IMG/VR virus record: IMGVR_UViG_3300050821_007139 | Span: 27,469-91,468 of that record | Direction: 5' to 3' (one strand) | Length of the DNA stretch: 64,000 nucleotides | Source of the DNA: a virus | Shown: piece by piece, positions 11,255 through 51,053 of the stretch | Layout: every line of letters begins with the position of its first letter | How positions within the stretch are numbered: the stretch's first letter is position 1 | Notes under the pieces: generated by a model | What the model was told of the DNA's origin: nothing | Seen by the model: only the letters and a program-made list of their open reading frames with translations | Databases searched by the model: none | Translations under genes and position numbers: made by a program

Positions 11255-11541
11255 ATCTTGTATTGGCGTTACACAGGGCGACGACCGTAAGGGAATATCT
11301 GCGTAGCGAGTTAAGTCTTGGCTTAGCTTCGCCCCTGGTATCCAAGTCCCTGCACTCTAAGCCCAAGGGACGGCGCACCGGCCTGGTCCTCCGGCAAGAT
11401 TATTCAATCTTGGGCATTTAATTGTATATTAACGTGCATTCTTGGTTAATATACTGGCGGCCGGAAAGAGCTGGGCAGCCATGTGTCAAATGCCAAACTT
11501 GATTGGAGCTACCTAGAGATGCACCTAGGTAGTAGCTCCAA
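11255..11541 (+). ncRNA. Putative structured ncRNA, copy A of 3
   Basis: Blocks TTGGCGT(11263), CGACCGTAAGG(11282), ACTCTAAGCC(11354), GGACGGC and CTGGTCC, plus a 3' bulged hairpin at 11503-11541; shared with 17956-18207(-) and 50855-51053(+). Confidence 0.7.
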
Positions 11542-11545
11542 GAGA

Positions 11546-11737
11546 TTAAATATTTGTCTCTTTAAGCTTAGCTTTGTAAGCTTGTTTTGCAGCTTCACGA
11601 GCTTTTGCTCTACGAAGAATTTGTTTGGCTCTTTCTACTACCATCCAATGGAGGTCACCCCAAATTGTGATTAATACTCCTATGAATACTCCTAGGCAAA
11701 AAATTCTAAAAGCCCAACTATTAAGTATGTCTGTCAT
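11546..11737 (-). CDS. Small single-TM protein with basic tail
   Basis: TM helix followed by a charged helix; GAGG/AAGG upstream; overlaps the start of the + strand lipoprotein. Confidence 0.5.
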   Translation of the reverse strand: MTDILNSWAFRIFCLGVFIGVLITIWGDLHWMVVERAKQILRRAKAREAAKQAYKAKLKETNI

Positions 11738-12563
11738 AGCCTTATTTCTTTCCTCTTGTTCTGGATCTTTAACTGCAACACCGCCAGCACAACCTACGCC
11801 AGAGGCTATTCAGGCTTTGAATATCAGACTATTAGCTATTTCTTCCGATCCAATAATGACTTGGCAAATAGGAAATTATTCTGTTCGGTCGGCTTGTCAT
11901 GCTTATCTTAATGCTATGGCGGCGCGAAGTGCCAATATTAATCTTGCATCTGGCTCCCTTGGTCTTGCTGGGCCGGCAGCTGCAGGGTTTTTAGTAGCCG
12001 GATCAAATCCTATGGGAGCGGCTGCTGCAGGAGCTATAGCGGCTCTTGGGCAAACATTCTTGAATCTATTTAATTCTAGCGGCTCAATTCCTTATACTGC
12101 TGAAACATCTGGCATCATCCAAGCCGCCCTTGATGCTTATGAGGGTGGAGTTAATCTTTCTCCACCCTCAAGTATTCCCCAAGCAATTTCTTATATTGAT
12201 GATCTCTGGTGGCAATGCTCAGCTGGTGGATATGCAATATTAGTTAGTAAGGCTATTAGTACGGCTAATATTGGCGTTCAGATGAATGGAATGTTTTCGT
12301 TCCGTTCACTTACACCGACAGGTCGGCCGGTGATTACTGTAAATCCACCGCCAACTACTACAAATTCAACATTCGAAGAAATGCCACTACCGCGACCCAG
12401 ATTGCACCGTAAAATAGCACCGCCACTAGCACGGCAACAAATAGCGTCACCAGAGGCGGCCAATTTACCTGCCAATTTACCTGACGATCTTGATAAGCTG
12501 GCTCGTCTGCGTTGGCTAAAGGCAACTTGGACTTGTGTTCGGATGTTAGATGGAACATGTTAG
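11683..12563 (+). CDS. Putative lipoprotein (start uncertain: 11625, 11683 or 11728)
   Basis: Lipobox-like LFLSSC after a hydrophobic stretch; Gly/Ala hydrophobic hairpin; paired Cys. Confidence 0.6.
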
Positions 12564-12590
12564 TACCATTTATTTCCTTTCCTATTGCAT

Positions 12591-12965
12591 TTATTCCCAG
12601 CTGACTTTACAAACTATCACTACGTTGTCTCCACAAATACCGGGAGTTACAGCTGCACATGGAGATATTTGAAATACGATCGGAGCTTGACTCAAGTCGC
12701 TTGCACTGATATTTCCCCAATTTGCTGCACCGCCAGCAGTCGTTAGATCGACGCCGTAAACAATTCCGTCATCTGAGCCGACTCCATATCTCCCGGTCGC
12801 AGGGGTACTCGCTGTTCCTGGCACCGCCGTATAAAACCAGCCGCAATCTGGATGATTTGGTCCATTTGCCGTTGATGAACCATGTAATACTGCATTACCC
12901 GATCCGGCATTAGCTACACTTGTGAGCAACAAAAATGCCGATGTAAACGCTAACAGCTTATTCAT
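12591..12965 (-). CDS. Small secreted Cys-containing protein
   Basis: MNKLLAFTSAFLLLTSVANA leader; AAGGAG SD. Confidence 0.7.
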   Translation of the reverse strand: MNKLLAFTSAFLLLTSVANAGSGNAVLHGSSTANGPNHPDCGWFYTAVPGTASTPATGRYGVGSDDGIVYGVDLTTAGGAANWGNISASDLSQAPIVFQISPCAAVTPGICGDNVVIVCKVSWE

Positions 12966-12980
12966 CTTACTTTCTCCTTT

Positions 12981-13604
12981 TTAAGGTCCTGGATAAAAGT
13001 GCAGTCCGCAACTACACTGACCCGTACACATATTTACTAGATATGCACATGCAGGGCCAGATAACCCACTTGGATTCCCTAGCAGAAATACTCCCTCTAA
13101 AGTTCCTACAAAACTATAATGCCCTCCTCCATCGCATATTCCTCCAGGTGATAGATTATTCAACTCTGCTCGTGGGCCGAATGATACTCCAGATACTCCT
13201 ATTGCTTGTACTAGTCTTACATGCGTTCCTAATATAGCTTGTGCTCCATTCATTGCCTTTAAATCGCAATCATTCGCGCTTAAACCCGTAAGCTTCTGCA
13301 ACCCTGCACCAAATGCAGGATTTCCTATATTTGGCACACAAGGAAATCCTCTTCCTCCTGGCACTTGACTACCCATTCTTGGGTTGCACGGACCTTGAGT
13401 CTGAAATCCAACCCAAACATTGTTATGTTCCGCTACATTGTCATTGCTAAAATTGTTTAGCAATCTTCCAATTATTAATTGCGCCGTGATATCTACCACC
13501 ACACCCGCAACAATATCGCTTATTGCTGGTTGCCCTGCTTTTGCTGGCCAACCATGAACCAATAACCATCCTAATATTAACGCTCCTATTCCTATTGATC
13601 TCAT
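12981..13604 (-). CDS. Secreted Cys/Gly-rich protein
   Basis: Signal peptide ending PAKA; 8 Cys; AAGG SD. Confidence 0.65.
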   Translation of the reverse strand: MRSIGIGALILGWLLVHGWPAKAGQPAISDIVAGVVVDITAQLIIGRLLNNFSNDNVAEHNNVWVGFQTQGPCNPRMGSQVPGGRGFPCVPNIGNPAFGAGLQKLTGLSANDCDLKAMNGAQAILGTHVRLVQAIGVSGVSFGPRAELNNLSPGGICDGGGHYSFVGTLEGVFLLGNPSGLSGPACAYLVNMCTGQCSCGLHFYPGP

Positions 13605-13621
13605 TCCTTTTTACTCCTTCT

Positions 13622-16570
13622 TTATCCACAGCCGGTGTTATTGCCACAGTTTGGGCATGTTAGACAAGTTCCAGTTTGGTTCATTTCAGAGCCGCATTCG
13701 GGACATAAAGTTCCTGAGCGATAAGAAATTAAATCTTCATGATTTTGATTTACATTTTCATTTTGATCTCCTATCAAATCTTTAGCAACTTGAACAAGAT
13801 TAGAATTACCCAGGTCGTTACGGGCTAAATATGTTATTCCAAGATCACGGAAGATTAGGTCCACAATGCTTGAACAAAGTTTAATCGTATCATGGCCTTG
13901 GACGATTCCGGAAGGCTCAAAGCGAGAATGTGTAAAGGCGTCTATATATTCCTCAAGTGGCACCCCGTATTGGATTCCAAGTGAAATTGCTTTTGAAAAA
14001 CATTCCATTAATGCTCGCGTGGTTGAACCTTCCTTAGATAGGTCTACAAAAATCTCACCTAGTGAACCATCAGAATAATTTCCGGTATGAAGGTACAATG
14101 TCTGACCGTTGATCTTATATTTATTTGTATATCCTCTGCGGCGTTCGGGTAAAGAAATTCTCTCGCCTCGGTAATGACCGTTAGGTTTAGTAGTAATATT
14201 CTGTAAATTTCCGTAATTCTCTTTATCTATTGATATAGATTCTTCTGTTAATGTCCATTTGTCTTGAGATTTAGTTTTACTATAAATAGAGCTGGTATAT
14301 AGTTCATTTGTTTCGCTTATGGCTTTATTAAGCAATTCTTCTTTAGCCCAAATCTCTTCTTTTGTATTTGAACTTAATGGCTGCGCTAACTTACATCCGT
14401 CTCGATAGATTGAGATTGATTTGAGGCCAAGTTTATGAGCCAATCTATAAATTTTATCTACATCTGCAACCGTAGCTTTATTTGGCATATTGACGGTTTT
14501 ACTGACTCCGCCGGATAAGAACGGCTGCACAGCCGCTACCATTTTAACATGGCCTTCAGGAGAAATACAATTTTCTCCGACCGCAGTTGCGAATACGGGC
14601 CAATGTTCTTCTTTTATCCATTTTCTAATATCAAATCCGGCTTCGACTTGTTTAACGATTTGGGTAGCTTTTGTAGAATCGTAGCCTAGTTCAAATAAAG
14701 CCCCGTATACGGATTGATTAATAAATTTCATGTTACCTCCCCCGGCTAGTTTCTTGGATTTAACTAGGGCAAAATCCGGCTCTATACCTGTAGTATCGCA
14801 ATCCATTAAGAGCGCTATTGTTCCAGTTGGCGCGATCAAAGTTACTTGAGCATTGCGAAAAATAATAGAATCACTTAAAAGAGTTTTCCAAACAAGATAT
14901 GCTTTACTGTCTATTACTGTCATTGGAGTAACTTGGGCTTTTCTGTAATGTTTATATATAATTTCGTGCATGAATTTACTATTTTCGCCGAATCTTAGAA
15001 ATGGACCTAGTTCGCCTGCTAGTTCAGCACTAGTTTTATAAGCAATGGCAGTCATTAGAGAAGTAATTGCGCCTGCTATACTTCTTCCTTCATCGCTATC
15101 ATAGGCTAAACCGTTGCGCATGATTAGTGCGCCAAGATTAGCATAACCGAGGCCCAAAGTACGGTAATTGTAACTTCCTAGAGCGATCTCCTTTGAGGGA
15201 AAACTAGCCATATAGACGCTGATTTCGAGTACTATGGTCCATAATCTTGTTGCGTGTTCAAAAGCTTCGATATCAAAATCTTTATTGGTTTTTAAAAATT
15301 TACATAAATTTAATGAAGCCAAATTACAAGCGGTATTATCTAAGTGGAGGTATTCCCCGCACGGGTTAGATGCATTGATATCACCATCAGCCTTGCAAGT
15401 GTGCCAGGATTGAATCGTATCATGAAATTGAACCCCTGGATCTCCGCACTCCCAAGCGGAGCTACAGATTTGATCCCATAATTCCTTTGCTTCAAGTACT
15501 TTAGTGACATGTCCTGTTGTACGTTCAGTCAGGAACCATGGTTTGTCTTCGCTAAGCGCATCGATAAAACTATCTGTAACTCGAACTGAGTTGTTAGAAT
15601 TTTGGCCTGATACTGTATCTAAAGCTTCATCGGGGCTCCAAGCTTCGGTAGCTGAAAGGACCTTTGCTTTCTCTTCTTCTTTAACTTTCCAATTTATAAA
15701 ATCTTCAATTTCAGGATGATCAAGATCACAAACTCTCATTAAGGCCGCACGGCGTGTTGTTCCGCCGGATTTAATGGCGCCAGCCGCCCGATCGCCGACA
15801 CGAAGGAAACTCATCATGCCGGAGCTAGTTCCGCCACCGGATAATAATTCTCCCTTGGCTCTCAACTTGCTTACATTTGTCCCTGAACCTGATCCGTATT
15901 TAAAGATCTTTGCTTCACGCAACCAAAGGTCCATAATTCCGCCGGGATTGACTAGATTATCATCTACTGGTTGAATAAAACAAGCGTGCGGAGTTGGATA
16001 TTCGTAAGAGTCCTTACATTCGACTTGATTTCCGTCCTCGTCGTTTCTCCATTGACCATTAACATTTCCGGTAATTCCATAGGCCCAATATAAGCCTGTG
16101 TTAAACCATTGTGGCGAATTGGGCGCTCCGATTTGCTTTGCGAGCATCAAGTAAAGCTCGTCATAGAATATTTGAGCATCATCGTGATTATCTAAGATTC
16201 CTTCGCGCCAGCCCCAATAAGTCCAACAACCTGCGAGCCGATGGAAGACTTGCTTGGCGGAGGTTTCGGAACCGAAAGTTAAGTTTATATCAGGTGCTGG
16301 AATGGATGGTAGGAGCCAAATTGGCATTTCGCCATGAAGTTCTTCGTCCCCTTTTAAATACCCTGTCTTATTTGGCATTCCGGCTTTACGAAAATATTTT
16401 TGCGCTAAGATATCTGTTGCAGTTTGACTCCAATGATCTGGGACTTCAATATCTTTCATCTCGAAGATTATATTTCCTTCGAGATCGGTTATTTGAGAGT
16501 CTACTCGTTTCCACGCGACTTGATCTTGAACTGGTGTATTGGGTAAAGAATAAAATCTCTCGAATTTCAT
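13622..16570 (-). CDS. nrdJ: Class II (adenosylcobalamin-dependent) ribonucleotide reductase
   Basis: NSPQWFN, HACFI, GGTTRRAA, NPCGE, ACNLAS, IAPTGT, GIEP and SKTVN motifs; C-terminal CxxC/CxxC/GCG. Confidence 0.96.
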   Translation of the reverse strand: MKFERFYSLPNTPVQDQVAWKRVDSQITDLEGNIIFEMKDIEVPDHWSQTATDILAQKYFRKAGMPNKTGYLKGDEELHGEMPIWLLPSIPAPDINLTFGSETSAKQVFHRLAGCWTYWGWREGILDNHDDAQIFYDELYLMLAKQIGAPNSPQWFNTGLYWAYGITGNVNGQWRNDEDGNQVECKDSYEYPTPHACFIQPVDDNLVNPGGIMDLWLREAKIFKYGSGSGTNVSKLRAKGELLSGGGTSSGMMSFLRVGDRAAGAIKSGGTTRRAALMRVCDLDHPEIEDFINWKVKEEEKAKVLSATEAWSPDEALDTVSGQNSNNSVRVTDSFIDALSEDKPWFLTERTTGHVTKVLEAKELWDQICSSAWECGDPGVQFHDTIQSWHTCKADGDINASNPCGEYLHLDNTACNLASLNLCKFLKTNKDFDIEAFEHATRLWTIVLEISVYMASFPSKEIALGSYNYRTLGLGYANLGALIMRNGLAYDSDEGRSIAGAITSLMTAIAYKTSAELAGELGPFLRFGENSKFMHEIIYKHYRKAQVTPMTVIDSKAYLVWKTLLSDSIIFRNAQVTLIAPTGTIALLMDCDTTGIEPDFALVKSKKLAGGGNMKFINQSVYGALFELGYDSTKATQIVKQVEAGFDIRKWIKEEHWPVFATAVGENCISPEGHVKMVAAVQPFLSGGVSKTVNMPNKATVADVDKIYRLAHKLGLKSISIYRDGCKLAQPLSSNTKEEIWAKEELLNKAISETNELYTSSIYSKTKSQDKWTLTEESISIDKENYGNLQNITTKPNGHYRGERISLPERRRGYTNKYKINGQTLYLHTGNYSDGSLGEIFVDLSKEGSTTRALMECFSKAISLGIQYGVPLEEYIDAFTHSRFEPSGIVQGHDTIKLCSSIVDLIFRDLGITYLARNDLGNSNLVQVAKDLIGDQNENVNQNHEDLISYRSGTLCPECGSEMNQTGTCLTCPNCGNNTGCG

Positions 16571-16845
16571 TAATTTAGCTCCTTTTCCCAGCTAAATGAA
16601 GGTATAATTCCACTCTCAGAGATAGCAAGTTCAGCATTTTCTGACAATAAGTGGGCAAGGGTATGCTTAGGCTTCCTTCCAGGGCGTTTGCAACGTGAGG
16701 AACCGAGTAAGATATTTAGGGCTTCTTTTTTATTCCTTCGCCACCTTTGTGTTCGCTCAATGTGCTTCTTTGGGTCTTCATTTATCTTTGCTACTAGCCA
16801 GGTCATAATGATATTACTTTCCGAATTGCAAATGGTGAATTGCAT
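16570..16845 (-). CDS. Hypothetical basic protein
   Basis: TAATG coupling to nrdJ; start uncertain. Confidence 0.45.
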   Translation of the reverse strand: MQFTICNSESNIIMTWLVAKINEDPKKHIERTQRWRRNKKEALNILLGSSRCKRPGRKPKHTLAHLLSENAELAISESGIIPSFSWEKELN

Positions 16846-17095
16846 CCGCTGCTTCTGATAATGCGTGTTTTGTTTCGATAGAATGAGGTAATATATCGCG
16901 AAGGCGGAGAACTATTAATTCTGCTTGATCCCTCATTTGTTCCACAGTTTTGGGCGGAGTAAAATGGGCCTTCCAAAGTGGATGGTTTGGATGCCATGCT
17001 AAACCACATACTTCTTGAGATAAGGGTTTTATAGATTTTGGCATATAGAAATTTTCTTTAGCTTTAATATGGTGATACATAAGTAGTATTGCCAT
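16814..17095 (-). CDS. Hypothetical protein
   Basis: ORF in operon; probable start at MPKS. Confidence 0.45.
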   Translation of the reverse strand: MAILLMYHHIKAKENFYMPKSIKPLSQEVCGLAWHPNHPLWKAHFTPPKTVEQMRDQAELIVLRLRDILPHSIETKHALSEAADAIHHLQFGK

Positions 17096-17306
17096 GTGGG
17101 TTTAATACTATATATCCACCATTATTATCGGGAAATGCGTAAGAAGTTCCTTTAGAATTTTGGATTATATAATTTGGTGGGTAAGCTGGAGCGATAGTTC
17201 TATTTGGCATTTGAAGTGGGTAGAACTGTAAAGGAGGAATTTGTGTATATTGCGCATGAGCAGAAAAAGAAATAAATACACAAGCTAAAATTATAATTGT
17301 TTTCAT
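17064..17306 (-). CDS. Small secreted protein
   Basis: MKTIIILACVFISFSAHAQ signal peptide; PPLQFYPL resembles QPLPFYPL in ORF 46878. Confidence 0.65.
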   Translation of the reverse strand: MKTIIILACVFISFSAHAQYTQIPPLQFYPLQMPNRTIAPAYPPNYIIQNSKGTSYAFPDNNGGYIVLNPHGNTTYVSPY

Positions 17307-17308
17307 AG

Positions 17309-17680
17309 TTAAAACTTCTTTCCATGTTCGGATTGTCTGTATTCTAAATCATGATCGATTCTGTCTTTATTGTATTTCATCTTAGCTTCAATTGCATGTT
17401 CAAGATCAATGTTTAATCGTCCTGCTAGATCGAAGATACGAATACATGCGTCTGCAAGTTCTACATTAATACCAGGTAGATATGGTATATGATCATCCAT
17501 TGTTCCTTTGCGAAAAGCTTCCATAGCTTCGCTAATCTCAGAATGGATTAGGGCGAATTTTGTTCCAATTATATACTTGCCGACATTCTCAGGTGTTAGA
17601 TTATCACTCCCAAAATCATTCCACCAGCCTCGATCATAACTTTCTTCAAAGCACTTCTCAACTAAATCATTTAAGTGCAT
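17309..17680 (-). CDS. MazG-like NTP pyrophosphohydrolase
   Basis: HSEISEAMEA.RK ... ELADACIRIFD ... KM.YN. Confidence 0.85.
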   Translation of the reverse strand: MHLNDLVEKCFEESYDRGWWNDFGSDNLTPENVGKYIIGTKFALIHSEISEAMEAFRKGTMDDHIPYLPGINVELADACIRIFDLAGRLNIDLEHAIEAKMKYNKDRIDHDLEYRQSEHGKKF

Positions 17681-17705
17681 TTTATAAATCTCCTATATAA
17701 ACTCT

Positions 17706-17930
17706 TTATTTATTTAAATGATTCGTCGCGCCTGAATCGGTGCTACACATTTCAGCTGCAGAACCAGTTAGAGAAAATTTCTCAGCATAAGGCCGAGCGA
17801 ATTTGACATATATTGGTTCTCGATTTGCTTCACTTAAATTATCTTCAAAGTGCATATCCCCTGGCCAGGGAATTAGTTCGTAGATTTTTTTATTATTATC
17901 AATTTCTCTATTATTAGCGGTAAGTGGCAT
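17706..17930 (-). CDS. Hypothetical protein
   Basis: AAAGGA SD; lies directly downstream of RNA copy B. Confidence 0.5.
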   Translation of the reverse strand: MPLTANNREIDNNKKIYELIPWPGDMHFEDNLSEANREPIYVKFARPYAEKFSLTGSAAEMCSTDSGATNHLNK

Positions 17931-17955
17931 AGGTTTAATCTTTCCTTTACTTTAG

Positions 17956-18207
17956 TTGGGTGTTGTCCTAAGATACACACGGTACTTTAGGACACCCAAA
18001 GGTTGTGGTGATTTACACTAGCGCGGGCCGAGAAATAATTAATCTTGAAAGGATAACTTTCTCTCGGCTTTGCTAAGGGGGACCAGACCTTCCTGCCGTC
18101 CTGAGGCTTAGAGTTAACCGGGCTTGAATGAGAGGATAAGAGAATTGATCCATCTTACGCGCACTCCTTTCCTTACGGTCGGGGGCCGGCAATCACGCCA
18201 ATGAGAG
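17956..18207 (-). ncRNA. Putative structured ncRNA, copy B of 3
   Basis: Reverse complement contains TTGGCGT, CGACCGTAAGG, GCGTA, ACTCTAAGCC, GGACGGC, CTGGTCC and a TTTGGGTG...CACCCAA bulged hairpin. Confidence 0.7.
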
Positions 18208-18588
18208 CTACGTTGTTTTTAGCCGTATGGCTTCAAGGATCGGTAAATTCGCTTCAGTTGGGACATAGATCGTCTCGCCTTTACGTTCTTCCATCATCTT
18301 AATCCATTGCCATCTCAGATAGAGATCGTGCTGTTTTAGGTTGTCACCAATTATCTCTATCTGCTTAGCAACTGCTTCTGCCTCAATGATAGCTGCGGCC
18401 TTATTCAAATCAGCAGCCTTTAGGCGCCCGTTGGCATGGGCGCCTTGAATCTGTTGCTCGTTCTGAGCCCGTGCAAGGTCCGCAAGTCCCTTCTGGTGGG
18501 CGAACCATACGCGATAGCGCGGAAATCCCCAAAGCCAGATAACTAAAATTGCCAAGATTATTATGGTGGGTAAAATTAAATTGTCCAT
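18208..18588 (-). CDS. Membrane-anchored protein, SPFH/band-7-like C-terminal coiled coil
   Basis: N-terminal TM; G.A.LA.A; YLRWQWI; IYVPTEANLPILEA. Confidence 0.65.
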   Translation of the reverse strand: MDNLILPTIIILAILVIWLWGFPRYRVWFAHQKGLADLARAQNEQQIQGAHANGRLKAADLNKAAAIIEAEAVAKQIEIIGDNLKQHDLYLRWQWIKMMEERKGETIYVPTEANLPILEAIRLKTT

Positions 18589-18602
18589 GTCAATAGAAGC
18601 TC

Positions 18603-18908: not shown

Positions 18909-18913
18909 ACCAT

Positions 18914-20070: not shown

Positions 20071-20074
20071 TGCT

Positions 20075-28206: not shown

Positions 28207-28461
28207 AGATTATCTCCTTAGGTTGATTTTTTGTTAGGTTTTTGAAGTGATTTTCGCGAGCTTTTGGCGCCTTTACGTTTCATAATAGCGCTTGACCGAC
28301 GGCGTTTGGCAGTTGGGGTTGTGGACATTTTAAATTTTCTTCCCTTATAACATGGGGCTCCCCTCGTCGTTACCCGAAGCTAAGCGTTCAAAATTAGTCT
28401 GCCGAGTAGGCACAGACTACAAAGCTCCGCCCATGTTATCTTGAGTTGAGTTGACTTTACT

Positions 28462-38990: not shown

Positions 38991-39302
38991 TCATGAGATT
39001 TGATCCTTCTCCTTGTTGCGCTTGTCAGCCTTGCGTTGAAACCGAGAGCGTTTAGAGGGGCGATTGATTTTTTTGTGTAACTTGGGCGTCTCATCGACAA
39101 CTGACTCAGGCTCAGTTAGAAGGTCACGGCCAGCCATATCGCAACGTCGAACTTCTGTGAATCCTTCACGCATCTTCAATTCATGAGCAGTGATACCAAA
39201 CCAGTTTGAGCGATAAATCTTACCGTCAGCCACGTATAGGTAACTACCGTGAATCGGATAGTCGTCTGGTAAAACCGGCTCGTCTAATTCTTGATTGGGC
39301 AT
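38991..39302 (-). CDS. Hypothetical protein (start re-placed downstream of the tRNA)
   Basis: AAGGAG SD before MPNQELDEP. Confidence 0.6.
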   Translation of the reverse strand: MPNQELDEPVLPDDYPIHGSYLYVADGKIYRSNWFGITAHELKMREGFTEVRRCDMAGRDLLTEPESVVDETPKLHKKINRPSKRSRFQRKADKRNKEKDQIS

Positions 39303-39322
39303 GTTTTCACTCCTTTTGGTTT

Positions 39323-39409
39323 TGGTAGGTGTGGAGGGACTCGAACCCTCAAAGAGAACGGATTTTAAGTCCGCAAGTTGTGCCAGTTCACTATTATCTC
39401 CACACACCT
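39323..39409 (-). tRNA. tRNA-Leu(UAA), atypical
   Basis: Acceptor AGGTGTG/CACACCT-A-CCA; D arm AGT-GAACTGGCACA-ACT; anticodon arm GCGGA-CTTAAAA-TCCGT; T arm GAGGG-TTCGAGT-CCCTC. Confidence 0.85.
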
Positions 39410-41627: not shown

Positions 41628-41649
41628 TTTGGAACTCCTGAAGAAAGTG

Positions 41650-41677: not shown

Positions 41678-41692
41678 AAAATAGTTTGAGGT

Positions 41693-42874: not shown

Positions 42875-42877
42875 TGC

Positions 42878-43081: not shown

Positions 43082-43207
43082 TTGATCTTTACTCCAGTTT
43101 GTGACTAAGAGTTATTCACGCTTAATCACGTTAGATATGCTCTGATGAACATACCAAGTTAAGGTAAGGTTGGTTTTATTATTCCTTACCTTAATTGTGC
43201 TATGTTC

Positions 43208-43855
43208 CTATTGCTCGGTCATCGTCAAGCATGATTTATATCTCCTCTTCATTTGTGTTTTTTTTTCCCAGATACAGAATGAGCAATCGAATTGGCCTAC
43301 TTGGTTAATTTGAAATAGGAGCCGCTTATGACCGTGTGCGATAAATTCGTTATAAATTTTCTCAGGATCATCATTTTGACCGGGATGCCAGCCGCTTTCG
43401 TATCCACATTTTAATTCACGGTAGCCATATTTACTTAGATCAATATTTGAAAGATTGATTGCTCGTTTTGGAGTATTTTCTAGTGTAGCAATATCATCTT
43501 CTGTCAGACATTCGAGACAGTAGCATTCGTCATTATTTTGTAGATACGATGGTTGCCAGCTATGACTATCTGGGGATATACGGAGAGCGTTACCACAACC
43601 ATTGCATATGGTCCATTCATCTTCCCATTCTATCTCGTATCCCGCCCGTTCTAAAATAGAAGATAGATCGCGTGGGAAATAATTCCAGTTGGAAAATAGA
43701 ATGCCGTGCTTTGGGTTTTTATATCCAGGTTCGGCATACTCATGGGCGCCTTGTAAATTTTCAATATAACGCTCTGCTGTTCTACGCCATCCGGGTTCGT
43801 TGGCGCAGGATGGTGCCCGGCATAAGCTCTTGCGCATGATATATTGCGGGGTCAT
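43208..43855 (-). CDS. Conserved phage hypothetical protein with CxxC pairs
   Basis: YAEPGY, .NWN, EW.DEW..C..C, ESGWHPGQNDDP, GQFD. Confidence 0.7.
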   Translation of the reverse strand: MTPQYIMRKSLCRAPSCANEPGWRRTAERYIENLQGAHEYAEPGYKNPKHGILFSNWNYFPRDLSSILERAGYEIEWEDEWTICNGCGNALRISPDSHSWQPSYLQNNDECYCLECLTEDDIATLENTPKRAINLSNIDLSKYGYRELKCGYESGWHPGQNDDPEKIYNEFIAHGHKRLLFQINQVGQFDCSFCIWEKKTQMKRRYKSCLTMTEQ

Positions 43856-43873
43856 TGTTTACATTCTCCTTGG

Positions 43874-44353
43874 CTAGATTTCGATTTCTAGATCGTCTTC
43901 GCTTGGGATTCGCTTTGTAGTGAAGAATCCGTAGCGCCCGACTAGTTCGCCGCTTTGGGCCATACGCTCGATTTCTGAATTGTTGAACCCTTCGCGGCGT
44001 AATTTGCGCACTACATTTTCGCTGGGTTGAAGGACTGTAGGATCGATGAATTTAAGAGCACTTGGATAATGTGCAGCGGTATATTCGATGGTGCGGATAT
44101 GGCGTTGGTGGGCCATGAACTTTTCGTGCTCGAGTCTCTTTTCTTGCTCTTTCTTGATCGCCTGCTCTTGCATTATTATTTGTTGAGCGAGAAGTAGGGC
44201 ATTCTCGCGGATTGTGTCTGCCAGCGATTCGGCGCTCGATACAAAGACCTCGATTTGATCTAATTCAATCTTCAGGCGCGAACCGTTCTTACCGGGAGCT
44301 TCAGCTCGTAATGTTTTAAAGTCGTTGCGGAATAAAGTGATTTGGGCAGTCAT
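43874..44353 (-). CDS. Hypothetical protein ending EIEI
   Basis: 159 aa; ATGA coupling. Confidence 0.6.
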   Translation of the reverse strand: MTAQITLFRNDFKTLRAEAPGKNGSRLKIELDQIEVFVSSAESLADTIRENALLLAQQIIMQEQAIKKEQEKRLEHEKFMAHQRHIRTIEYTAAHYPSALKFIDPTVLQPSENVVRKLRREGFNNSEIERMAQSGELVGRYGFFTTKRIPSEDDLEIEI

Positions 44354-44745
44354 ATCTCTATCTCCGTTGCATCTGCTTTGCGTTGCCTACAAGCTGCATA
44401 GTTGTGTGTTCTTTCTGGCACTTGACCTAATCGGATCATTTGTTCGAACCAGTTATATCCGTGCCCGTATTTCCATCCACCATATATCAAACCTTCCATT
44501 GCATGAGCGACCTCATGTAGAAAAGTTGATATTAGGGCTATTTTTCCTTGATCTCTTAGTCCTGGATGCAAGTGTATTTTGCTTGTGCTGCCGCGACCGG
44601 CGCACGATTTTAAGTTCCAATTAAACGCAACTGGAATTTGCTTTGTTTTTTCTAATCTTGGATCGAAACTTATAGCGCGGGATAATATATCTTGTAGGCC
44701 CAGTTCTCGTGCGAAACTCTCGACAGTTCCAAGATTTTCTAACAT
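44350..44745 (-). CDS. SprT-like zinc metalloprotease
   Basis: N.L...AGR, TFLHEVAH, HG..W...M..LG..P...H. Confidence 0.8.
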   Translation of the reverse strand: MLENLGTVESFARELGLQDILSRAISFDPRLEKTKQIPVAFNWNLKSCAGRGSTSKIHLHPGLRDQGKIALISTFLHEVAHAMEGLIYGGWKYGHGYNWFEQMIRLGQVPERTHNYAACRQRKADATEIEI

Positions 44746-44766
44746 AGCTCTGGTTCCTTCCTTTTC

Positions 44767-45063
44767 TTAATGATTTCCTAAGATGGAAATTTGACAATTA
44801 GAAGGAAGTATAGTATTTATATATCGTAGCGTTTCGCTATTTCCTGCGGAAATTTCTAACAAGGCGTAATTCGTGAGGTCGCGCGAGTCTTCTTTTGTTA
44901 TGGTGTTATCTAGCGTATAAAATGCTTTTGCGATTAAACACTCGATTGTTGTAGCGTCGTAGGTTTGGTTGTTTATAAGGAATTTTTCCATAGCGGGTGG
45001 CGCCTTTGGAAGAGAGGGTTGGATTGGAAGTGTAGCACAATGGGACAATGGGTTGTCAAACAT
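44767..45063 (-). CDS. Hypothetical protein (probable start MEKF ~44991)
   Basis: First gene of the leftward operon; TTGACA at 45054-45059 lies upstream of the shorter start. Confidence 0.45.
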   Translation of the reverse strand: MFDNPLSHCATLPIQPSLPKAPPAMEKFLINNQTYDATTIECLIAKAFYTLDNTITKEDSRDLTNYALLEISAGNSETLRYINTILPSNCQISILGNH

Positions 45064-45378
45064 TAATTGAGTTGAGGAAATAGAAGGATGCTCAACGCAG
45101 GGTTGTACTACTGACTAAGGCTCCACGAACTAATTATCGTGATTAGTCCAAAAAATATTAATCCGAATGCGCAAATTAATGTCTCAATTTCCCAGCGAAT
45201 CTCTGATGGAATAACGCGCATGGTGAATCTGTCACCTGGTCTGTGAAACTGGCGGTCTGCTGTTTAGCATAGATTTGTGACTTTTTGTAGAGGGTTTGGT
45301 AGGGGATGCTTGGCAAAGCAGGCTATGTTAACGCCGATGTTGACCTGTAATGTTAGGATGGCAGAGTGGGCGCGCCGT

Positions 45379-45724
45379 GGTTCGATGGGCATGATTGAGC
45401 TTAAAGTGATGTTAGCGTCGATGTTGTAGTATGATGTTTAAGCGACCCGGGGAGGGTGGTTGTGTGTGAGGGTATCTAGGGTTGTAAGAGGGTACAACCT
45501 AGGGTATACTTACTTAAAAATATATATAAAATTAACTAAAGAGAGAAAGACATTTTCAGTTCTAAGGACGGAAATTATAATATATATACTTATACCAATA
45601 CCCTTTTGGATCGATGGCCATCCGAAAGTACCTTTACCACCCCCACCTTACCCTGCCTTGCTTAAACATTATAGCCTAACATCAGCCCTAACATCGAATC
45701 TGACCTAATCGCGCCCATAGAACC
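45379..45724. repeat. Imperfect 65 bp inverted repeat with GATGTT-type iterons flanking an AT-rich core (origin candidate)
   Basis: Arms 45379-45443 and 45660-45724 align without gaps; AT-rich core at ~45505-45600; located at the strand switch. Confidence 0.75.
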
Positions 45725-45882
45725 TCCTCAAGATTTGAATTTTGTGCTTAGTATAGGCGAAATGGGAGCCGGGCCGGAGCGGGCTCGAGTCGCGTGAGAT
45801 AGTTCCCCGACGGGTTGTGCCCGACGACGCCGCAAGCGCCCCGCTCCTCCGAAAAAAAAACCATCAAACCCCAAAATAAAAT

Positions 45883-45911
45883 TTGACAACTCTCGCGCCA
45901 TATGAGATAAC
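45883..45911 (+). promoter_or_regulatory. Putative sigma70-type early promoter
   Basis: TTGACA preceded by A-tracts (UP-like); -10 only approximate. Confidence 0.45.
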
Positions 45912-45966
45912 TCTCTCGGTTAGTCGATACCGATTAGCTGGAACCAAAGCAAAGTGGAGTTTGAAA

Positions 45967-46548
45967 ATGTCTGAGAATCGTAAGCCGCGTGAAGTTCACG
46001 ATACGGTCGCAACCCGGCTGAGCAACCTGAGCAACCAGTATCTCGTGTATGTCAAGGACGAGGCTGCTGACGTTCATATCCCGGTCGCATACACCCCGCG
46101 CTTCACGCCAGGGGGTGCTGTGACACCTGAGCTCGCACGCGCTCTCAATTGGGCGCACGTCGAAAAGGCTTCCATGTCGGCCTCTATGGCGCTCCGGAAG
46201 CACTCGGATATGCCTGACAACTTGAAGGGTGAATTTGTCACCCGTCACGTTGCGGACTATAACTTTCCGAGTGACTTCGGCGACCTCGGCGGGAACATGC
46301 TCACGCGTGCGGCTATGGAAATCGCAATGGAGCTCGGCAAAGCGCAGCTGTCCGGCCTGACAGACGCCAAGCGCGCGGCAAAGGCGGCCAAGGCTGTGGA
46401 GGCAATCCTCAACACCCCGAGCGTCGCGGACAAGTACACTGACCGCGTTTCGCAAATTGCAGCCGGTATCCTCGCGACCCGTAAGCCAGTCTCGAAGCGC
46501 ACTAAGGGCAGCGATACCGAATCTGACGCAGGCGATATCGCCGTCTAA
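45967..46548 (+). CDS. GC-rich early protein ending DIAV
   Basis: GGAG SD before ATG 45967; G/C-ending codon bias unlike neighbouring genes. Confidence 0.75.
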   Translation: MSENRKPREVHDTVATRLSNLSNQYLVYVKDEAADVHIPVAYTPRFTPGGAVTPELARALNWAHVEKASMSASMALRKHSDMPDNLKGEFVTRHVADYNFPSDFGDLGGNMLTRAAMEIAMELGKAQLSGLTDAKRAAKAAKAVEAILNTPSVADKYTDRVSQIAAGILATRKPVSKRTKGSDTESDAGDIAV

Positions 46549-46594
46549 CCAAGAAAGGAAGTGGTAGGGCTGATCCCCTACCACTTAATTCCCC

Positions 46595-46870
46595 ATGTAT
46601 CATCTAGTGATCAAAGGAACCAAGCTTCAAGCGGAGCAGGCTGCTACCGAACGTGGTGTATCAGTAACATTCATAAGTTACTACCCACAGTGGGATCAAA
46701 CACTAGCCCATACCGATGCAGACCTTTCTACTCTTGCCGAGTGGTATCACGAATATGATGAAACTATGGATAAGACGACTAGTACTATAGTAGGAAGGTA
46801 TCCGCCCGGTAGCCTACTTGTATTCAGCTCTACACAAATAGAGACTACAATTTACAATAAAGAAGGATAA
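46595..46870 (+). CDS. Hypothetical protein
   Basis: A..RG...L..W..E...YPPGSLL motif. Confidence 0.6.
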   Translation: MYHLVIKGTKLQAEQAATERGVSVTFISYYPQWDQTLAHTDADLSTLAEWYHEYDETMDKTTSTIVGRYPPGSLLVFSSTQIETTIYNKEG

Positions 46871-46877
46871 ACATCTC

Positions 46878-47126
46878 ATGCGAATACCAGCCCTCATAGT
46901 TGTTGGCGCACTCGTTGCCTCTTGCGGGTCATTACCACAACTGGAAGATTACCCTTATCGCTCGTCTCAGATAGCAGTCATTAACGCCGCGCCAAGCTTT
47001 GCGCCTACGCAACCATTACCCTTCTATCCGCTATCATTGCCGACAGGATATAACTCTCGCTCGACTAACTTCACTTGCTTCTCATCCCGTCTTAGTGCTT
47101 CGATGGCATATACTAACTGCAATTGA
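46878..47126 (+). CDS. Small lipoprotein
   Basis: LVASC lipobox; C-terminal TC...YTNCN. Confidence 0.65.
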   Translation: MRIPALIVVGALVASCGSLPQLEDYPYRSSQIAVINAAPSFAPTQPLPFYPLSLPTGYNSRSTNFTCFSSRLSASMAYTNCN

Positions 47127-47145
47127 TAAAGAAAGAATTAACTTG

Positions 47146-47175
47146 AGGGGAGCTTAATTGCTCCCCTTTTTATTT
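47146..47175 (+). terminator. Rho-independent terminator
   Basis: AGGGGAGC-ttaatt-GCTCCCCT followed by a T tract. Confidence 0.85.
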
Positions 47176-47460
47176 GCCCTGAGTTACAACCCAAGCTTGT
47201 TCAACTCTTAATTTCAAATCTAATCTCAAGCTTAGTATTTATCTTATCTTAATCCATCCTTGGTTGTAAATCCCTTGTAGAAAAACGATATCCCTTTTAA
47301 TATCTCCTGCCACCCTTCGCCAGAACCAATCCCCAACATATCACATTTTTTCCCCCTGCAAGAAATTATTCAAAGAAGGTAAGCGCGAGTTAAAGGTCAA
47401 GTTTAAGCGCGGATAAAAGTGCCTAAAAAAGTGCCTAAAGGGCCTTGAAAGCTTGCGGCT

Positions 47461-47489
47461 CTTGACTATACGCGGGCGCCCGCATATAT
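47461..47489 (+). promoter_or_regulatory. Alphaproteobacterial sigma70-type promoter
   Basis: CTTGAC-N17-ATATAT versus consensus CTTGAC-N17-CTATAT. Confidence 0.65.
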
Positions 47490-47547
47490 ATAAAGCAAGG
47501 AGGGTAAGCGCGATCGGTCAGGAGCGCTCAGTAGAGGAACCCATATC

Positions 47548-48141
47548 ATGCCCATCAATCAAAACCTATCCTTAATCCCCCGGCGCGGCCTGAGCGCCCA
47601 AAATATCACCCTGACTCTCCTAGGCGAATTAACCCAAGCTGATCTAGCCCGGTTGCCATTAAAGCCGAAGACCTCCCCGCCGACCTTGCAAAAGGCCCGG
47701 GCGATCCACCACAAACAAGCCCAATTGATAGCGCAAGGTTTCAGCTTGGCTGAAATAGCGGCCCAAGTCGGCTCAACCGAATCCCGCCTAAGCTTGCTTA
47801 AAAGCGATCCTACCTTTGCACAGCTAATAGCTTTCTATGCAAACCAGCAAGATATAATTAATTACGAAGCCCATGCCCGGGTGCAAGAGACATTAGTTGA
47901 TGTCCTTGAGCTAAGCACTAATGAAATTCAAGAAAGATTAAGTGATGAAACGGTAAGGAAGAAAATTCCTATCCGTGAGTTGCGCCAGTTAGCCGAGTTC
48001 GCAGGTGATCGCAGTATAGCACCCCCGAAGGCAACCCAACAGGGAAGCATTAGCCCACCGCAAAAGATAACCCTAAATTTCGGCTTCGAAACAAAACTCA
48101 AGCCCGAGCCGCAAATTATTGATATGGATACGAATGACTAA
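47548..48141 (+). CDS. HTH protein (terminase small subunit or late regulator candidate)
   Basis: HH..A.LIA.G....EIA..VG....R.S.LK.DP.F; start of packaging region. Confidence 0.55.
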   Translation: MPINQNLSLIPRRGLSAQNITLTLLGELTQADLARLPLKPKTSPPTLQKARAIHHKQAQLIAQGFSLAEIAAQVGSTESRLSLLKSDPTFAQLIAFYANQQDIINYEAHARVQETLVDVLELSTNEIQERLSDETVRKKIPIRELRQLAEFAGDRSIAPPKATQQGSISPPQKITLNFGFETKLKPEPQIIDMDTND

Positions 48142-48143
48142 AG

Positions 48144-48590
48144 ATGCGCGTAGCTTTCGATCTCAAAGTCGCGTTTCCAAGCATCTCAAAGTATATTCCA
48201 GAGCCGACTTCAATTCACGCCAAGAACGGCCTAAGATACGAGCGAAAGGTAGTTAAAGCCCTAAGTAAAGCTTATTTATTATCACACAACCCTTGGTATT
48301 TCTTTGAAGATATGAACGGCCCGGGCCATATCGTCCCTGATGCTATAATTGAATATCAAGATCAGCTAATAATTATCGAAATAAAGCTGACCTACACCGC
48401 TGAAGCAATCTTCAAATTGCGAAACCTATACTGCCCCGTCATAAGCTATGCTACAAATAAGGAAACTTTACCTTTAGTTATAACCAAAAATCTAACTTCA
48501 GCGTCGCCAAATCCAGCCTTCAATGTCTCCTCAGCTTTAATTAACCCCGAGCCACTCTTACATTGGCTAGGGAAAGGGAATTTAGATTAA
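48144..48590 (+). CDS. PD-(D/E)XK nuclease-like protein
   Basis: G..YE, PD, IEIK. Confidence 0.65.
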   Translation: MRVAFDLKVAFPSISKYIPEPTSIHAKNGLRYERKVVKALSKAYLLSHNPWYFFEDMNGPGHIVPDAIIEYQDQLIIIEIKLTYTAEAIFKLRNLYCPVISYATNKETLPLVITKNLTSASPNPAFNVSSALINPEPLLHWLGKGNLD

Positions 48591-48600
48591 GAACCCTTTC

Positions 48601-48630
48601 AAGCCCCTATGGCTATCGTAGGGGCTTTTT
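48601..48630 (+). terminator. Rho-independent terminator
   Basis: AAGCCCCTA-N9-TAGGGGCTT followed by TTT. Confidence 0.8.
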
Positions 48631-48795
48631 GCGTTTCGGCCCGACATCTCCCATTGCCCCATGTACTTATCTTCTATAACCTCGCCTCGGATCAGTGTGT
48701 TTTAGTAGCCTGGCGTTCCCCCTGATGCAATTTTCCGCATAGCCATGCTTTCTCTTTAGAGCTAAGATACACTGATCCAAAGCAAAGGAAATTAA

Positions 48796-49029
48796 ATGTC
48801 TTGCTTCAGTGAACAGTTTTGCATTGAGTTAGTAATTCTCTTTGCACTAATCATGATTATAAGGTTGGTTGTTCCAGCACTTTTAAATTTCTTCGGCCTC
48901 GGCGGCGTCGTAGCTCAAGTTATATCTATAATCTTGTGGGCAATTATAACTATAGTTGGGATCAAAATACTGTGGGTGTTATTTAGTTGCTTATGGTCGT
49001 CTATGGGCGCAAGCGGGATGAAGTTCTAG
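48796..49029 (+). CDS. Small membrane protein
   Basis: Two hydrophobic helices; AAAGGA SD. Confidence 0.65.
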   Translation: MSCFSEQFCIELVILFALIMIIRLVVPALLNFFGLGGVVAQVISIILWAIITIVGIKILWVLFSCLWSSMGASGMKF

Positions 49030-49039
49030 TAAAGCTCCA

Positions 49040-49861
49040 ATGGCTATTGAATTCCCACGGCCCCAATTACCAGCCAAGATAGCCCTTGGTATGTTTTGCG
49101 ACGCCAAGTTAAGCTTATTCGAGTGGTGTTCACCCAAGTCAGCCCGGGTAGAGTCGGGTTTAGCTTGGCTAACTGAGCGCGCCTTTGCTGGCACTGTAGA
49201 TCAAAATTTCTGGTGGGTCGGCCCCGACTTTAGTGCTTGCGCTCAAGCACTAATAACTTTAAAGAACGCCCTAAGCCCCGGCTCATTTACTATCCCTTCC
49301 CGCACGCCTGCCCTGACTTTGCTCAACGGTGCGATGCTCCACTTCCGCCCGGCCGAAAACCCGAACGTGTTATACGGCGACTCTGTTTACGCCTGCGTAC
49401 TTGATCAAGCAGTTCATGTTAGCGAAAAAAGCTATCGGGCCTTGCAGGAAACCCTTGCTAATACTCGCGCGCCTTGGCGGATTACAAGTACAGTGGGCGG
49501 AAGAGCAAATTGGTTTAATGAGCTTGCGCGCGAATCTGAGGACGATCCGACTTCCGGTATCTTTTACACCCGGTTCAATGCTCTCGATGCGTGCGAAGCA
49601 GGGTTATTGGCTCAGGAGGATATAGATTACGCCCGGGCGACCTTACCTGACCATATGTTCCGGGCGCTATATCTAGCCCAGCCTTATGACGATAGAATCG
49701 AAGCCGCTTATAAAGCCTCCGATCCGAGAATCATGCGCGATGAAGAGCTGGCTATCATAGCCGGATTAAATCCCGAATCTATCAATTCTATTTCCGATGG
49801 TGAGCTTCTTAAACTCATTCATCCTAACCTGAACGAAAGTAATTCCACTCTCGTTCATTAA
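49040..49861 (+). CDS. Degenerate terminase large-subunit ATPase-domain paralog
   Basis: WWVGP, L.NGA...F..AE.P..LYG..V.A.VLDQA, G..NWF, LP...FR.LY.A; Walker A GKT absent; no nuclease domain. Confidence 0.75.
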   Translation: MAIEFPRPQLPAKIALGMFCDAKLSLFEWCSPKSARVESGLAWLTERAFAGTVDQNFWWVGPDFSACAQALITLKNALSPGSFTIPSRTPALTLLNGAMLHFRPAENPNVLYGDSVYACVLDQAVHVSEKSYRALQETLANTRAPWRITSTVGGRANWFNELARESEDDPTSGIFYTRFNALDACEAGLLAQEDIDYARATLPDHMFRALYLAQPYDDRIEAAYKASDPRIMRDEELAIIAGLNPESINSISDGELLKLIHPNLNESNSTLVH

Positions 49862-49881
49862 CTTGAAGGGAATTTAAGATC

Positions 49882-50076
49882 ATGCGTAATATGGGTAAAG
49901 AGGTTAACATCATTAGCGATTCGCCGCATATGCCGCAAGAGCACGGCGATAGTGCGATGCAGAATACCAGCGTTGGTTCCGGCTCCCGGCCGACTCCAAG
50001 CAAGTTCAAGATCGATACTTCGGCCCCGGAAGATCCACACACCCTGGGCCGTGATGTGCCCGGCAGCTTAAAATAA
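49882..50076 (+). CDS. Small disordered protein
   Basis: GAAGGG SD; 64 aa. Confidence 0.55.
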   Translation: MRNMGKEVNIISDSPHMPQEHGDSAMQNTSVGSGSRPTPSKFKIDTSAPEDPHTLGRDVPGSLK

Positions 50077-50085
50077 AGCCCTAAT

Positions 50086-50325
50086 ATGCCAGACGCTAAT
50101 AAATATGGGGGCAATGATTCCTGGGATGATTATGATAACACCAATACCCAAATAGCGCGTGATCATCCTAAGATTCCTATGCCTAAAATGCCTACTAAGA
50201 AAGACTTTACAAAATCCTTCGCCAAATCAAATCCTCCTATGACCGATGCTGAATTAAAGGAGGATTATGAAGGCATTCGAGCTGACAGAACTAGTGACAC
50301 CATAGCTCGTAAAGGAGGAACTTAA
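50086..50325 (+). CDS. Small protein, tandem paralog 1
   Basis: ANKYGGNDSWDDYDNTNTQ. Confidence 0.65.
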   Translation: MPDANKYGGNDSWDDYDNTNTQIARDHPKIPMPKMPTKKDFTKSFAKSNPPMTDAELKEDYEGIRADRTSDTIARKGGT

Positions 50326-50329
50326 TTCT

Positions 50330-50548
50330 ATGAATAGTAATGGCGCCAATAATTACGGTGGCAAAGACTCTTGGGACGACTACGACAATTCCAATACACA
50401 GTTGATCAAAGATCAAAAAAAATCAAAGCCTAAAAGTAAAGATTTGCCGATCTGGAACGATCCTAAAGATTCAAAATTGCCTCCGCCTAAGCAAGACCCC
50501 AATGCTTATGATTGGGGCCCGCCATTCGGGAAAAATTGGCCACTTTAA
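50330..50548 (+). CDS. Small protein, tandem paralog 2
   Basis: ANNYGGKDSWDDYDNSNTQ; AGGAGG SD. Confidence 0.65.
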   Translation: MNSNGANNYGGKDSWDDYDNSNTQLIKDQKKSKPKSKDLPIWNDPKDSKLPPPKQDPNAYDWGPPFGKNWPL

Positions 50549-50566
50549 TTCAAGGAGCCACTTAAA

Positions 50567-50842
50567 TTGTCAACCCAATATGCAACTAGTTATCTCAACC
50601 AACTGATATTTGCTGATAGAGATACTTCAATTCAGCTTCCTGATCCGACTAAAACTGGCGGCCCACTAGCTATCGGCGCCAAATTTACAGTTGAAGATAA
50701 TCTTGGAAGGGCCGGGGCCGCTAATATCGCCATTGTCGGCCCGATTAACGGCGGGACTACTGGGGTTTCAATTACTACTGCGTACAGTTCTATCGAATTC
50801 ACCTGGGTCGGCTCAACTTATACGCAAATTAACGGGCCGTAA
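50567..50842 (+). CDS. Small structural/fibre-type domain protein
   Basis: I.LP...G..F.VED..G.A...NI.I...ING motif; AAGGAG SD. Confidence 0.6.
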   Translation: MSTQYATSYLNQLIFADRDTSIQLPDPTKTGGPLAIGAKFTVEDNLGRAGAANIAIVGPINGGTTGVSITTAYSSIEFTWVGSTYTQINGP

Positions 50843-50854
50843 GTTGGGCCCGGA

Positions 50855-51053
50855 GTTGTTGGCGTTTGTGAGGGTTATCGTCCGTAAGGGGAATCCTGCA
50901 TGGTCGGTGGAGTATCGCCCGGCTTCTGATCCTAAACCCTCTTTCTCTGTGCCCACGTATTCCTGCGTTCTCAGGGAGCGATGAGCGTAGTCCATCACGC
51001 GAGCATCGTATTTGGGTGCCATACGGCTTCCACCCCCGTATGGCCGCACCCAA
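50855..51053 (+). ncRNA. Putative structured ncRNA, copy C of 3 (most divergent)
   Basis: TTGGCGT(50859), CGTCCGTAAGG(50879), GAGGG/CCCTC stem, CTCTGTGCC, TAGTCC and a TTTGGGTG...CACCCAA bulged hairpin at 51011-51053. Confidence 0.6.

Follow-up and report, generated by a model that had tools for sequence, protein, structure and literature searches.

A rare structured-RNA family absent from Rfam lies between genes of a soil phage and may act in cis on polycistronic transcripts

As a kind, orphan structured RNAs between phage genes are well known, and the RNase III sites of phage T7 are among the best points of comparison for the RNA described here. They are irregular hairpins with a 3'-side interruption that stand between the cistrons of early and late phage mRNAs, several per genome, with structure rather than sequence conserved; they leave the upstream RNA with a 3' hairpin that protects it and make the ribosome-binding site downstream accessible. 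Phage intergenic RNA is otherwise little charted, that of uncultured soil phages least. We analysed a 64,000-nt stretch, hereafter the window, which comprises bases 27469-91468 of a 91,468-bp phage record from soil (IMG/VR record IMGVR_UViG_3300050821_007139), and describe an intergenic RNA element that it carries in three diverged copies, A, B and C, which are about 60% identical.

The RNase III processing hairpins between T7 genes (e.g. R1.1) would be the closest functional analogy to this element, and its bulged-hairpin architecture, judged from folds only, is compatible with a T7-type RNase III signal. However, a T7 site consists of one hairpin only, about 50-60 nt long and with an internal loop, whereas the hairpin of the soil-phage element forms the last 35-60 nt of a 200-290-nt element with a core and a 5' stack. 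The put RNAs of phage HK022 (putL and putR) are likewise cis-acting phage RNAs, antiterminators with stacked hairpins that occur in more than one operon, but they are about 70 nt long and lie just 3' of promoters and 5' of terminators; the soil-phage element is 3-4 times longer, and no promoter or terminator context was found for it. A viral structured-RNA catalogue (Fremin, Bhatt, Kyrpides 2023, PMC10690425) lists 10,006 candidates from IMG/VR phage contigs, which resemble the element in being intergenic covarying motifs, many of them cis-regulatory and upstream of genes; none is characterised as having its fold, the comparison being made by description only.

An earlier note on this DNA, made from the sequence alone, had described three loci with ordered blocks, each beginning just after a stop codon. 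All three were present as described. In the window, TTGGCGT-N10-16-CGWCCGTAAGG is matched three times, where 100 shuffles give an expectation of 0.00, and an nhmmer profile of the three-copy core, run on all 91,468 bp of the genome, matched only A, B and C (E 1e-29 to 1e-33; next E = 6). The TTGGCGT block starts 13 nt (A), 6 nt (B) and 16 nt (C) past the preceding stop codon, and all copies are sense-oriented to their flanking genes, including B in the minus-strand arm of the genome. A single-sequence covariance model of copy A with a hand-drawn structure was used to align B and C, which it recovered with 48.9 and 28.8 bits, respectively. Below, R2 denotes the covariance model of A, B and C, and R3 the core model.

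The 5' domain of the element is a helix stack of S1, S2 and a variable hairpin, S3. The stem that the earlier note had seen to differ in sequence yet still pair was found in all copies and constitutes S1 (5 bp; CAGGG/CCCTG in A, GCCGG/CCGGT in B and GAGGG/CCCTC in C). The domain contains an asymmetric internal loop, the 5' strand of which is the invariant CG(A/T)CCGTAAG. S2 joins the 9 nt after GTAA to a stretch ending in T(C/T)C and shows three double changes between A and B. A GNRA-capped CC-GUAA-GG hairpin proposed for this region is probably wrong, as it has 2 bp only and competes with S2, and its G's more likely pair with T(C/T)C. After S1, the linker CTCT(AA/GT) leads to a GCC for which two partners exist, the 5'-block GGC (helix H1) and the GGC after GGAC (helix H3); since all the bases involved are invariant, the data favour neither. 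A and B have the GCC...GGC hairpin with its GGAC loop, and copy C has no GGACGGC block. As for the GGAC/GTCC pseudoknot suggested earlier, the complementarity holds, and GTCC turned out to lie inside the 9-nt loop of a covarying 4-bp hairpin of its own, H4. A loop-loop contact between the adjacent H3 and H4 is plausible and, because the loop bases are invariant, unproven. The terminal TTGG...CCAA hairpin with its 3-nt 3' bulge was likewise found in A, B and C.

Two further variants were found, one with a covariance model built from the three copies, a route that had been proposed for this element, and one with a core pattern. R2 was run on whole records of the closest terminase relatives (76% identity) and gave one match in each, variant D. 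D stands directly 3' of a homologue of the 91-aa gene that precedes copy C and is therefore positionally orthologous to C. It keeps CCCTAAGCC-CAAA-GGACGGC-AGA-[GGAG]-A(A/G)TGGTCCC-[CTCC], and its terminal hairpin (GTTGGCGT.../...ACGCCAAC) again has 3 nt bulged on the 3' side; as 5' domain D has a simpler stem, and the 5' blocks are absent. Thus C and D retain opposite halves, C the 5' blocks without GGACGGC and D the core without the 5' blocks. TTGGCGT, the 5' block of A, B and C, serves in D as the 5' arm of the terminal hairpin. Two D-lineage records differ in their upstream genes and have the element and the downstream gene in common, from one sharp left boundary. In record L179 (869-1459) there is an extra 196-aa open reading frame (ORF) between the 91-aa-gene homologue and D in comparison with L180/L184, and similarity between these records resumes exactly at ...CAGTAACATGAATTTCGCC, the left border of D.

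A core-pattern scan of JGI metagenomes returned D again and the new variant E, which lies on two short contigs of about 64% G+C that have no protein similarity to the phage carrying A, B and C. E has a gene for a DnaQ-like (DEDD) exonuclease on one side and, on the other, a small ORF and then the start of a family A DNA polymerase gene (L199 1386-2012, 2766-2894). It has H4 as AGGG/CCCT and S1 as CACACC/GGTGTG, scores 34.7 bits with R2, and its 5' end, TGGCCCTACACA, is alignable with TGGCGTTACACA of A. Two long open frames span E, which is no surprise at 64% G+C. The five variants share a stem, the C(T/C)CT(A/G)(A/T)GCC block, the 4-bp hairpin with a GTCC loop and the bulged terminal hairpin. 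For A, B and E, but not for C, the predicted folds include a long-range helix that joins the 5' block to the segment immediately 5' of the terminal hairpin.

The family, its helices and its strand are established. In a seven-row alignment (A7), which was fitted to the structure model and so favours structure, 95% of cells are standard pairs, and both sides have changed in 17 of the 27 pairs. None of 500 shuffles of A7 reached any of five measures, and when partners were slid by 1-3 columns pairing fell to 33-56%. RNAalifold on an unfitted MAFFT alignment of the 52-nt core recovered H3 and H4 independently, with three covarying pairs in H4. The H4 stem exists in five versions (CCGG/CCGG, AAGG/CCTT, GGAG/CTCC, AGGG/CCCT and GCGT/ACGC) and S1 in four sequence versions with pairing kept. 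G-U pairs are found in S1, S2 and S3; because the complementary strand would have C-A mismatches in their place, the fold is that of the transcribed strand. The terminal hairpins of all five variants, unrelated in sequence, consist of a lower stem, a 3-4-nt 3' bulge, an upper stem and a loop, and fold at -18 to -21 kcal/mol, in comparison to -6 to -13 for shuffles. The view that a conserved structured RNA is present in both transcription arms has thus gained homologues in two further phage lineages, compensatory changes and sense-only G-U pairs. The possibility that the blocks are promoters, raised in the earlier note, was not borne out: there is no sense-strand sigma-70-like site at the copies, and the compensatory changes and G-U pairs point to RNA.

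The novelty claimed for the element also withstood comparison with Rfam. Rfam 15 gave no match in the 64-kb window at the gathering threshold, and at E ≤ 10 it gave only chance matches of snoRNA/lncRNA type, both for the regions of A/B and of C and for short slices on which the filters are lax (311 nt of A, 391 nt of E). By this test, made against Rfam and not against the 10,006 unnamed candidates of PMC10690425, the RNA is a new family. Several described types of element were considered and rejected. No Intron_gpI or group II match was obtained, the upstream ORFs end in stops and the downstream ORFs have their own starts; as there is no split host gene, the element is not an intron. It is not an intrinsic terminator, since a scan found none in sense at any copy and only a short TTTT follows C. 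Neither a sigma-70-like promoter nor a U-tract terminator was detected on the sense strand in or around the copies, which are therefore probably co-transcribed with their neighbours. A Pfam survey of the whole genome, which takes in the 90 ORFs of at least 90 aa and leaves out shorter ORFs and undetectably remote homologues, contained no reverse transcriptase, TnpB/IscB, integrase, transposase, RNase III or RNA polymerase. The readings as TnpB/IscB ωRNA, IS110 bridge RNA, retron RNA or the RNA of a defence reverse transcriptase were rejected, there being no partner gene in that set, and the lack of reverse transcriptase, TnpB/IscB and integrase genes argues against a guide or scaffold RNA and against an autonomous mobile element. 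A tRNA or tmRNA reading was dropped because a scan found no such gene, and on reading the bulged hairpin fits neither a tRNA-like minihelix nor a K-turn (bulge on the wrong strand, no G-A pairs).

The family is real but rare, with five sequence types in three lineages, as pattern, BLAST and covariance-model searches returned nothing beyond A-E. The strict A/B core pattern had no match. In the viral contigs of IMG/VR, the 5' two-block pattern gave 11 loci, all coding or chance, and the relaxed core pattern gave the D lineage only, plus two coding chance matches; a three-block pattern gave one match, due to chance. The relaxed core pattern produced five matches in 185,579 GTDB species genomes, all chance, and D, E and chance matches in JGI metagenomes. 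Covariance models run on 50 whole records and about 180 loci of relatives found nothing further; the large-terminase (TerL) relatives P0003-P0009 (65-72% identity, contigs up to 85 kb) stand outside that search. TerL relatives at ≤54% identity had no element. Among GenBank phages (INPHARED, BLAST) the core was unmatched and A had only a 38-nt chance match, and a search of viral contigs with the 91-aa protein gave no match. A weak match in a 134-kb relative (G003) was set aside as chance because it lies inside the ORF of a TPR protein. Weak R2 matches in L008 and L010 had been preselected by pattern, and the one in L008 is the reverse strand of a coding frame and thus chance.

With regard to function, we tentatively favour a previously uncatalogued structured-RNA family that is carried in phage polycistronic mRNAs and acts in cis as a processing, stability or translation module. 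Each element consists of four parts: a 5' stack of S1, S2 and variable S3 with its conserved unpaired strand; the linker C(T/C)CT(A/G)(A/T) leading to the core hairpins H3 (GCC/GGC) and 4-bp H4, the GGAC and GUCC loops of which probably touch; variable hairpins; and the two-part 3' hairpin with its 3-4-nt 3' bulge. By steering cleavage, barring nucleases or both, the core and the bulged hairpin would determine how stable the downstream cistron is and how well it is translated, and perhaps the same for the upstream one. The conserved core could be the centre of self-cleavage, could dock a nuclease or ribosomal factor, or could form a knot that resists nucleases. Whatever goes beyond the fold here, namely the loop-loop contact, any cleavage and the effect on expression, we infer. 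In four of the five variants (B, C, D and E), 4-32 nt separate the end of the terminal hairpin from the next start codon, and the downstream genes are mutually unrelated. Taken together, the sense orientation, the packing between stop and start codons, the sharing of the D element with its downstream gene and the unrelated downstream genes fit a generic cis-acting module better than a regulon riboswitch or a free small RNA.

Several observations weigh against this reading. Fold energies lie only modestly below those of shuffles (z = -2.7, -2.0 and -1.1 for the three copies), and the covariation comes from five sequence types of three lineages only, in an alignment fitted to the structure. The core loops are invariant, which leaves their contact without covariation support. 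The loss of GGACGGC in C and of the 5' blocks in D makes the function-bearing part ambiguous, and the hairpin of A ends about 140 nt from the next start. If the element is only a processing or stability signal, it would be a modest addition to a known theme; if it is self-cleaving, signal-sensing or nuclease-blocking, it would represent a new RNA fold and a new way to tune expression in long operons. RNA parts of this sort would be usable as insulators or processing elements in synthetic operons, and the core of about 60 nt with its five natural variants is a small, clean target for in vitro work.

There is a small chance that the element belongs to a new catalytic or ligand-sensing class of RNA, characterised by two kissing mini-hairpins and a CUCUAA linker and perhaps spread as a mobile intercistronic cassette. 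As a new small self-cleaving ribozyme, its linker and kissing H3/H4 core would make up the active site and cut the polycistronic RNA at one defined point, and the flanking hairpins would protect the products; we regard this as rather unlikely. The small ribozymes of phages (hammerhead, twister, twister-sister, pistol, hatchet and HDV-like/theta) share with the element short cores, invariant unpaired bases, loop-loop or pseudoknot contacts, covarying stems and scattered intergenic copies without gene association. The profile of the family, with several dispersed copies per genome at non-homologous intergenic sites, unrelated neighbours, a short core with invariant unpaired bases and covarying variable stems, is one typically seen in small phage ribozymes, and in D and E the core is coupled with very different peripheral domains. 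However, the Rfam models of known self-cleaving ribozymes (hammerhead, twister, twister-sister, pistol, hatchet, HDV, glmS, hairpin and VS) were unmatched even at E ≤ 10 on the 311-nt slice, and copy C has lost half of the core while keeping the rest. Manual reading, which is weaker evidence, revealed no hammerhead core words and a helix order, H3 then H4, incompatible with the HDV order P1-P2-P3-P1'-P4-P2'.

A riboswitch-like or protein-responsive leader, in which the 5' domain and core would bind a small molecule or a protein of phage or host, switch pairings and control downstream translation, is quite unlikely. The elements stand upstream of genes, and in four of five cases (B, C, D and E) the terminal hairpin abuts the start region at a distance of 4-32 nt. 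In the D lineage the downstream gene accompanies the element, and a long-range 5'/3' closing helix features in the predicted folds of A, B and E. The downstream genes, however, are unrelated small ORFs or a lipoprotein gene and form no common regulon, there is no U-tract terminator, and the Shine-Dalgarno sequences in B and D are not covered by the terminal hairpin. As a switch might, the invariant GCC has a choice of two GGC triplets to pair with, but these triplets are invariant too, so that the alternative pairings use invariant bases only. Known riboswitch classes were unmatched. The guanidine-II (mini-ykkC) riboswitch resembles the element in its two small adjacent hairpins with conserved loops proposed to pair; it differs in the loop sequence, ACGR as opposed to GGAC and GUCC, and the soil-phage element is much larger, gave no Rfam match and is accompanied by no guanidine-related genes.

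It is improbable that the element is freed from the operon transcript as a trans-acting RNA, a decoy or sponge for a host factor or defence system that phages infecting the same soil hosts would have in common. Its restriction to a few uncultured soil phages, with D and E from one metagenome series, and the several copies in both transcription arms agree with such a role, and the 5'/3' closing helix in A and B would define a discrete RNA body. Against it, no promoter or terminator of its own was detected, the copies are packed tightly between stop and start codons and differ greatly outside the short blocks, and the genome holds no recognisable partner protein.

A feature at the DNA level, that is, a non-autonomous mobile element, a recombination linker at module boundaries or a set of protein-binding sites, is very doubtful. 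B looks like an insertion, because 80 viral loci with homologues of its upstream 126-aa gene have no element downstream of that gene. The sites in different phages are non-homologous, and TTGG...CCAA words are found at the 5' block as well as in the two arms of the terminal hairpin. The compensatory changes and G-U pairs nonetheless indicate a single-stranded fold of the sense strand; by reading, the borders have neither target-site duplications nor long terminal inverted repeats, none of the surveyed ORFs encodes a transposase, integrase, TnpB/IscB or reverse transcriptase, and the second soil sample described below is identical, with no empty site seen.

A small protein-coding gene, in which the core would read as (S/K)P(K/R/Q)DG-x3-WS(P/S) in A, B, D and E, is highly improbable and was rejected: E does have an 85-codon frame running from TAATG to ATGA with overlapping stop/start signals, and D a 50-codon ATG ORF, but A and B lack an in-frame ATG/GTG/TTG 5' of the motif, C lacks the motif, the invariant CTAAGCC is in another frame in B than in A, D and E, an indel in variant D3 shifts the downstream frame, four sequences that cannot otherwise be aligned all use the GAC, GGC and TCC codons without a synonymous change, the three variable codons before TGG TCC invariably complement the three after it, and at 64% G+C long open frames such as that of E arise by chance.

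The phage record carries direct terminal repeats and encodes a P22-type coat and portal, a T4-type large terminase, a family A DNA polymerase, a class II ribonucleotide reductase, a GH25 lysozyme and several methyltransferases. By a crude gene call, 94% of the genome is coding. The plus-strand arm consists of structural and packaging genes and the minus-strand arm (window about 12.6-45 kb) of replication genes; no tRNA or tmRNA genes were found by scan. In a second soil run (X2) from a different study, contigs equalled window 11000-18400 with no differences, variants or joints, so one phage genotype occurs at two sampling efforts. The positions of the element and its parts are listed in Table 1.

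Table 1. Coordinates of the element copies and their parts in the window (TM, transmembrane; bits are covariance-model scores).
Feature	Position	Strand	Remarks
A, whole element	11263..11541	+	13 nt past stop of 63-aa two-TM ORF; R2 130 bits
A, 5' domain	11263..11364	+	TTGGCGT block 11263-11269
A, S1	11274-78 with 11348-52	+	
A, conserved strand CGACCGTAAGG	11282-92	+	
A, S2	11292-99 with 11337-43	+	
A, variable hairpin S3	11306-32	+	
A, CTCTAA linker	11355-60	+	
A, 3' core	11361..11394	+	
A, H3 GCC/GGC	11361-63 with 11372-74	+	loop CAAGGGAC
A, H4 CCGG/CCGG	11378-81 with 11391-94	+	loop CCTGGTCCT
A, terminal two-part hairpin, 3-nt 3' bulge (TAG)	11503..11541	+	-18.7 kcal/mol vs shuffle mean -6.5
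B, whole element	17956..18201	-	6 nt past stop of 126-aa protease-like ORF; R2 117 bits
B, linker and 3' core	18075..18113	-	CTCTAA at 18113-08
B, H3	18107-05 with 18097-95	-	loop TCAGGAC
B, H4 AAGG/CCTT	18091-88 with 18078-75	-	loop TCTGGTCCC
B, terminal two-part hairpin, 3-nt 3' bulge	17956..17999	-	
C, whole element	50859..51053	+	5' domain kept, 3' half diverged; R2 112 bits; missed by R3
C, S1	50870-74 with 50937-41	+	
C, CTCTGTGCC block	50945-53	+	
C, H4-like GCGT/ACGC	50985-88 with 50997-51000	+	loop AGTCCATC
C, terminal two-part hairpin, 3-nt 3' bulge (GCC)	51012..51053	+	

The gene after copy A is probably not a convergent gene but a plus-strand lipoprotein gene, with a start near 11682, about 140 nt 3' of the copy, and a signal peptide ending in LSSC; all three copies would thus lie between two same-strand genes. 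A 74-aa ORF begins 25 nt 3' of the terminal hairpin of B. The two ORFs flanking C (50567-50842 and 51086-51388), both with a TTG start and the N-terminus (M/L)ST-x-Y..., look like paralogues by sequence, and the first of them has homologues at 47-49% identity just 5' of element D.

Other gaps of 200-420 nt in the window (47127-47547, 28207-28461, 39101-39407, 48591-48795 and 45064-45276) gave no Rfam, R2 or R3 match; the last of them is the divergent region separating the two transcription arms. Positions 11318-11326 within S3 of A read TTGGCTTAG, which is identical to nine nucleotides of the GTPase-associated-centre hairpin of 23S rRNA; they are found in A only, and the likeness is probably a coincidence. 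A 63-aa minus-strand ORF (11546-11737; TM segment, basic tail) overlaps the start of the plus-strand ORF 11625-12563, the N-terminus of which is a clear lipoprotein signal (...ALFLSSC), and it is likely that only one of the two is real. These lipoprotein and TM ORFs, together with the 63-aa two-TM ORF 11058-11249, may form a lysis cassette enclosing element A.

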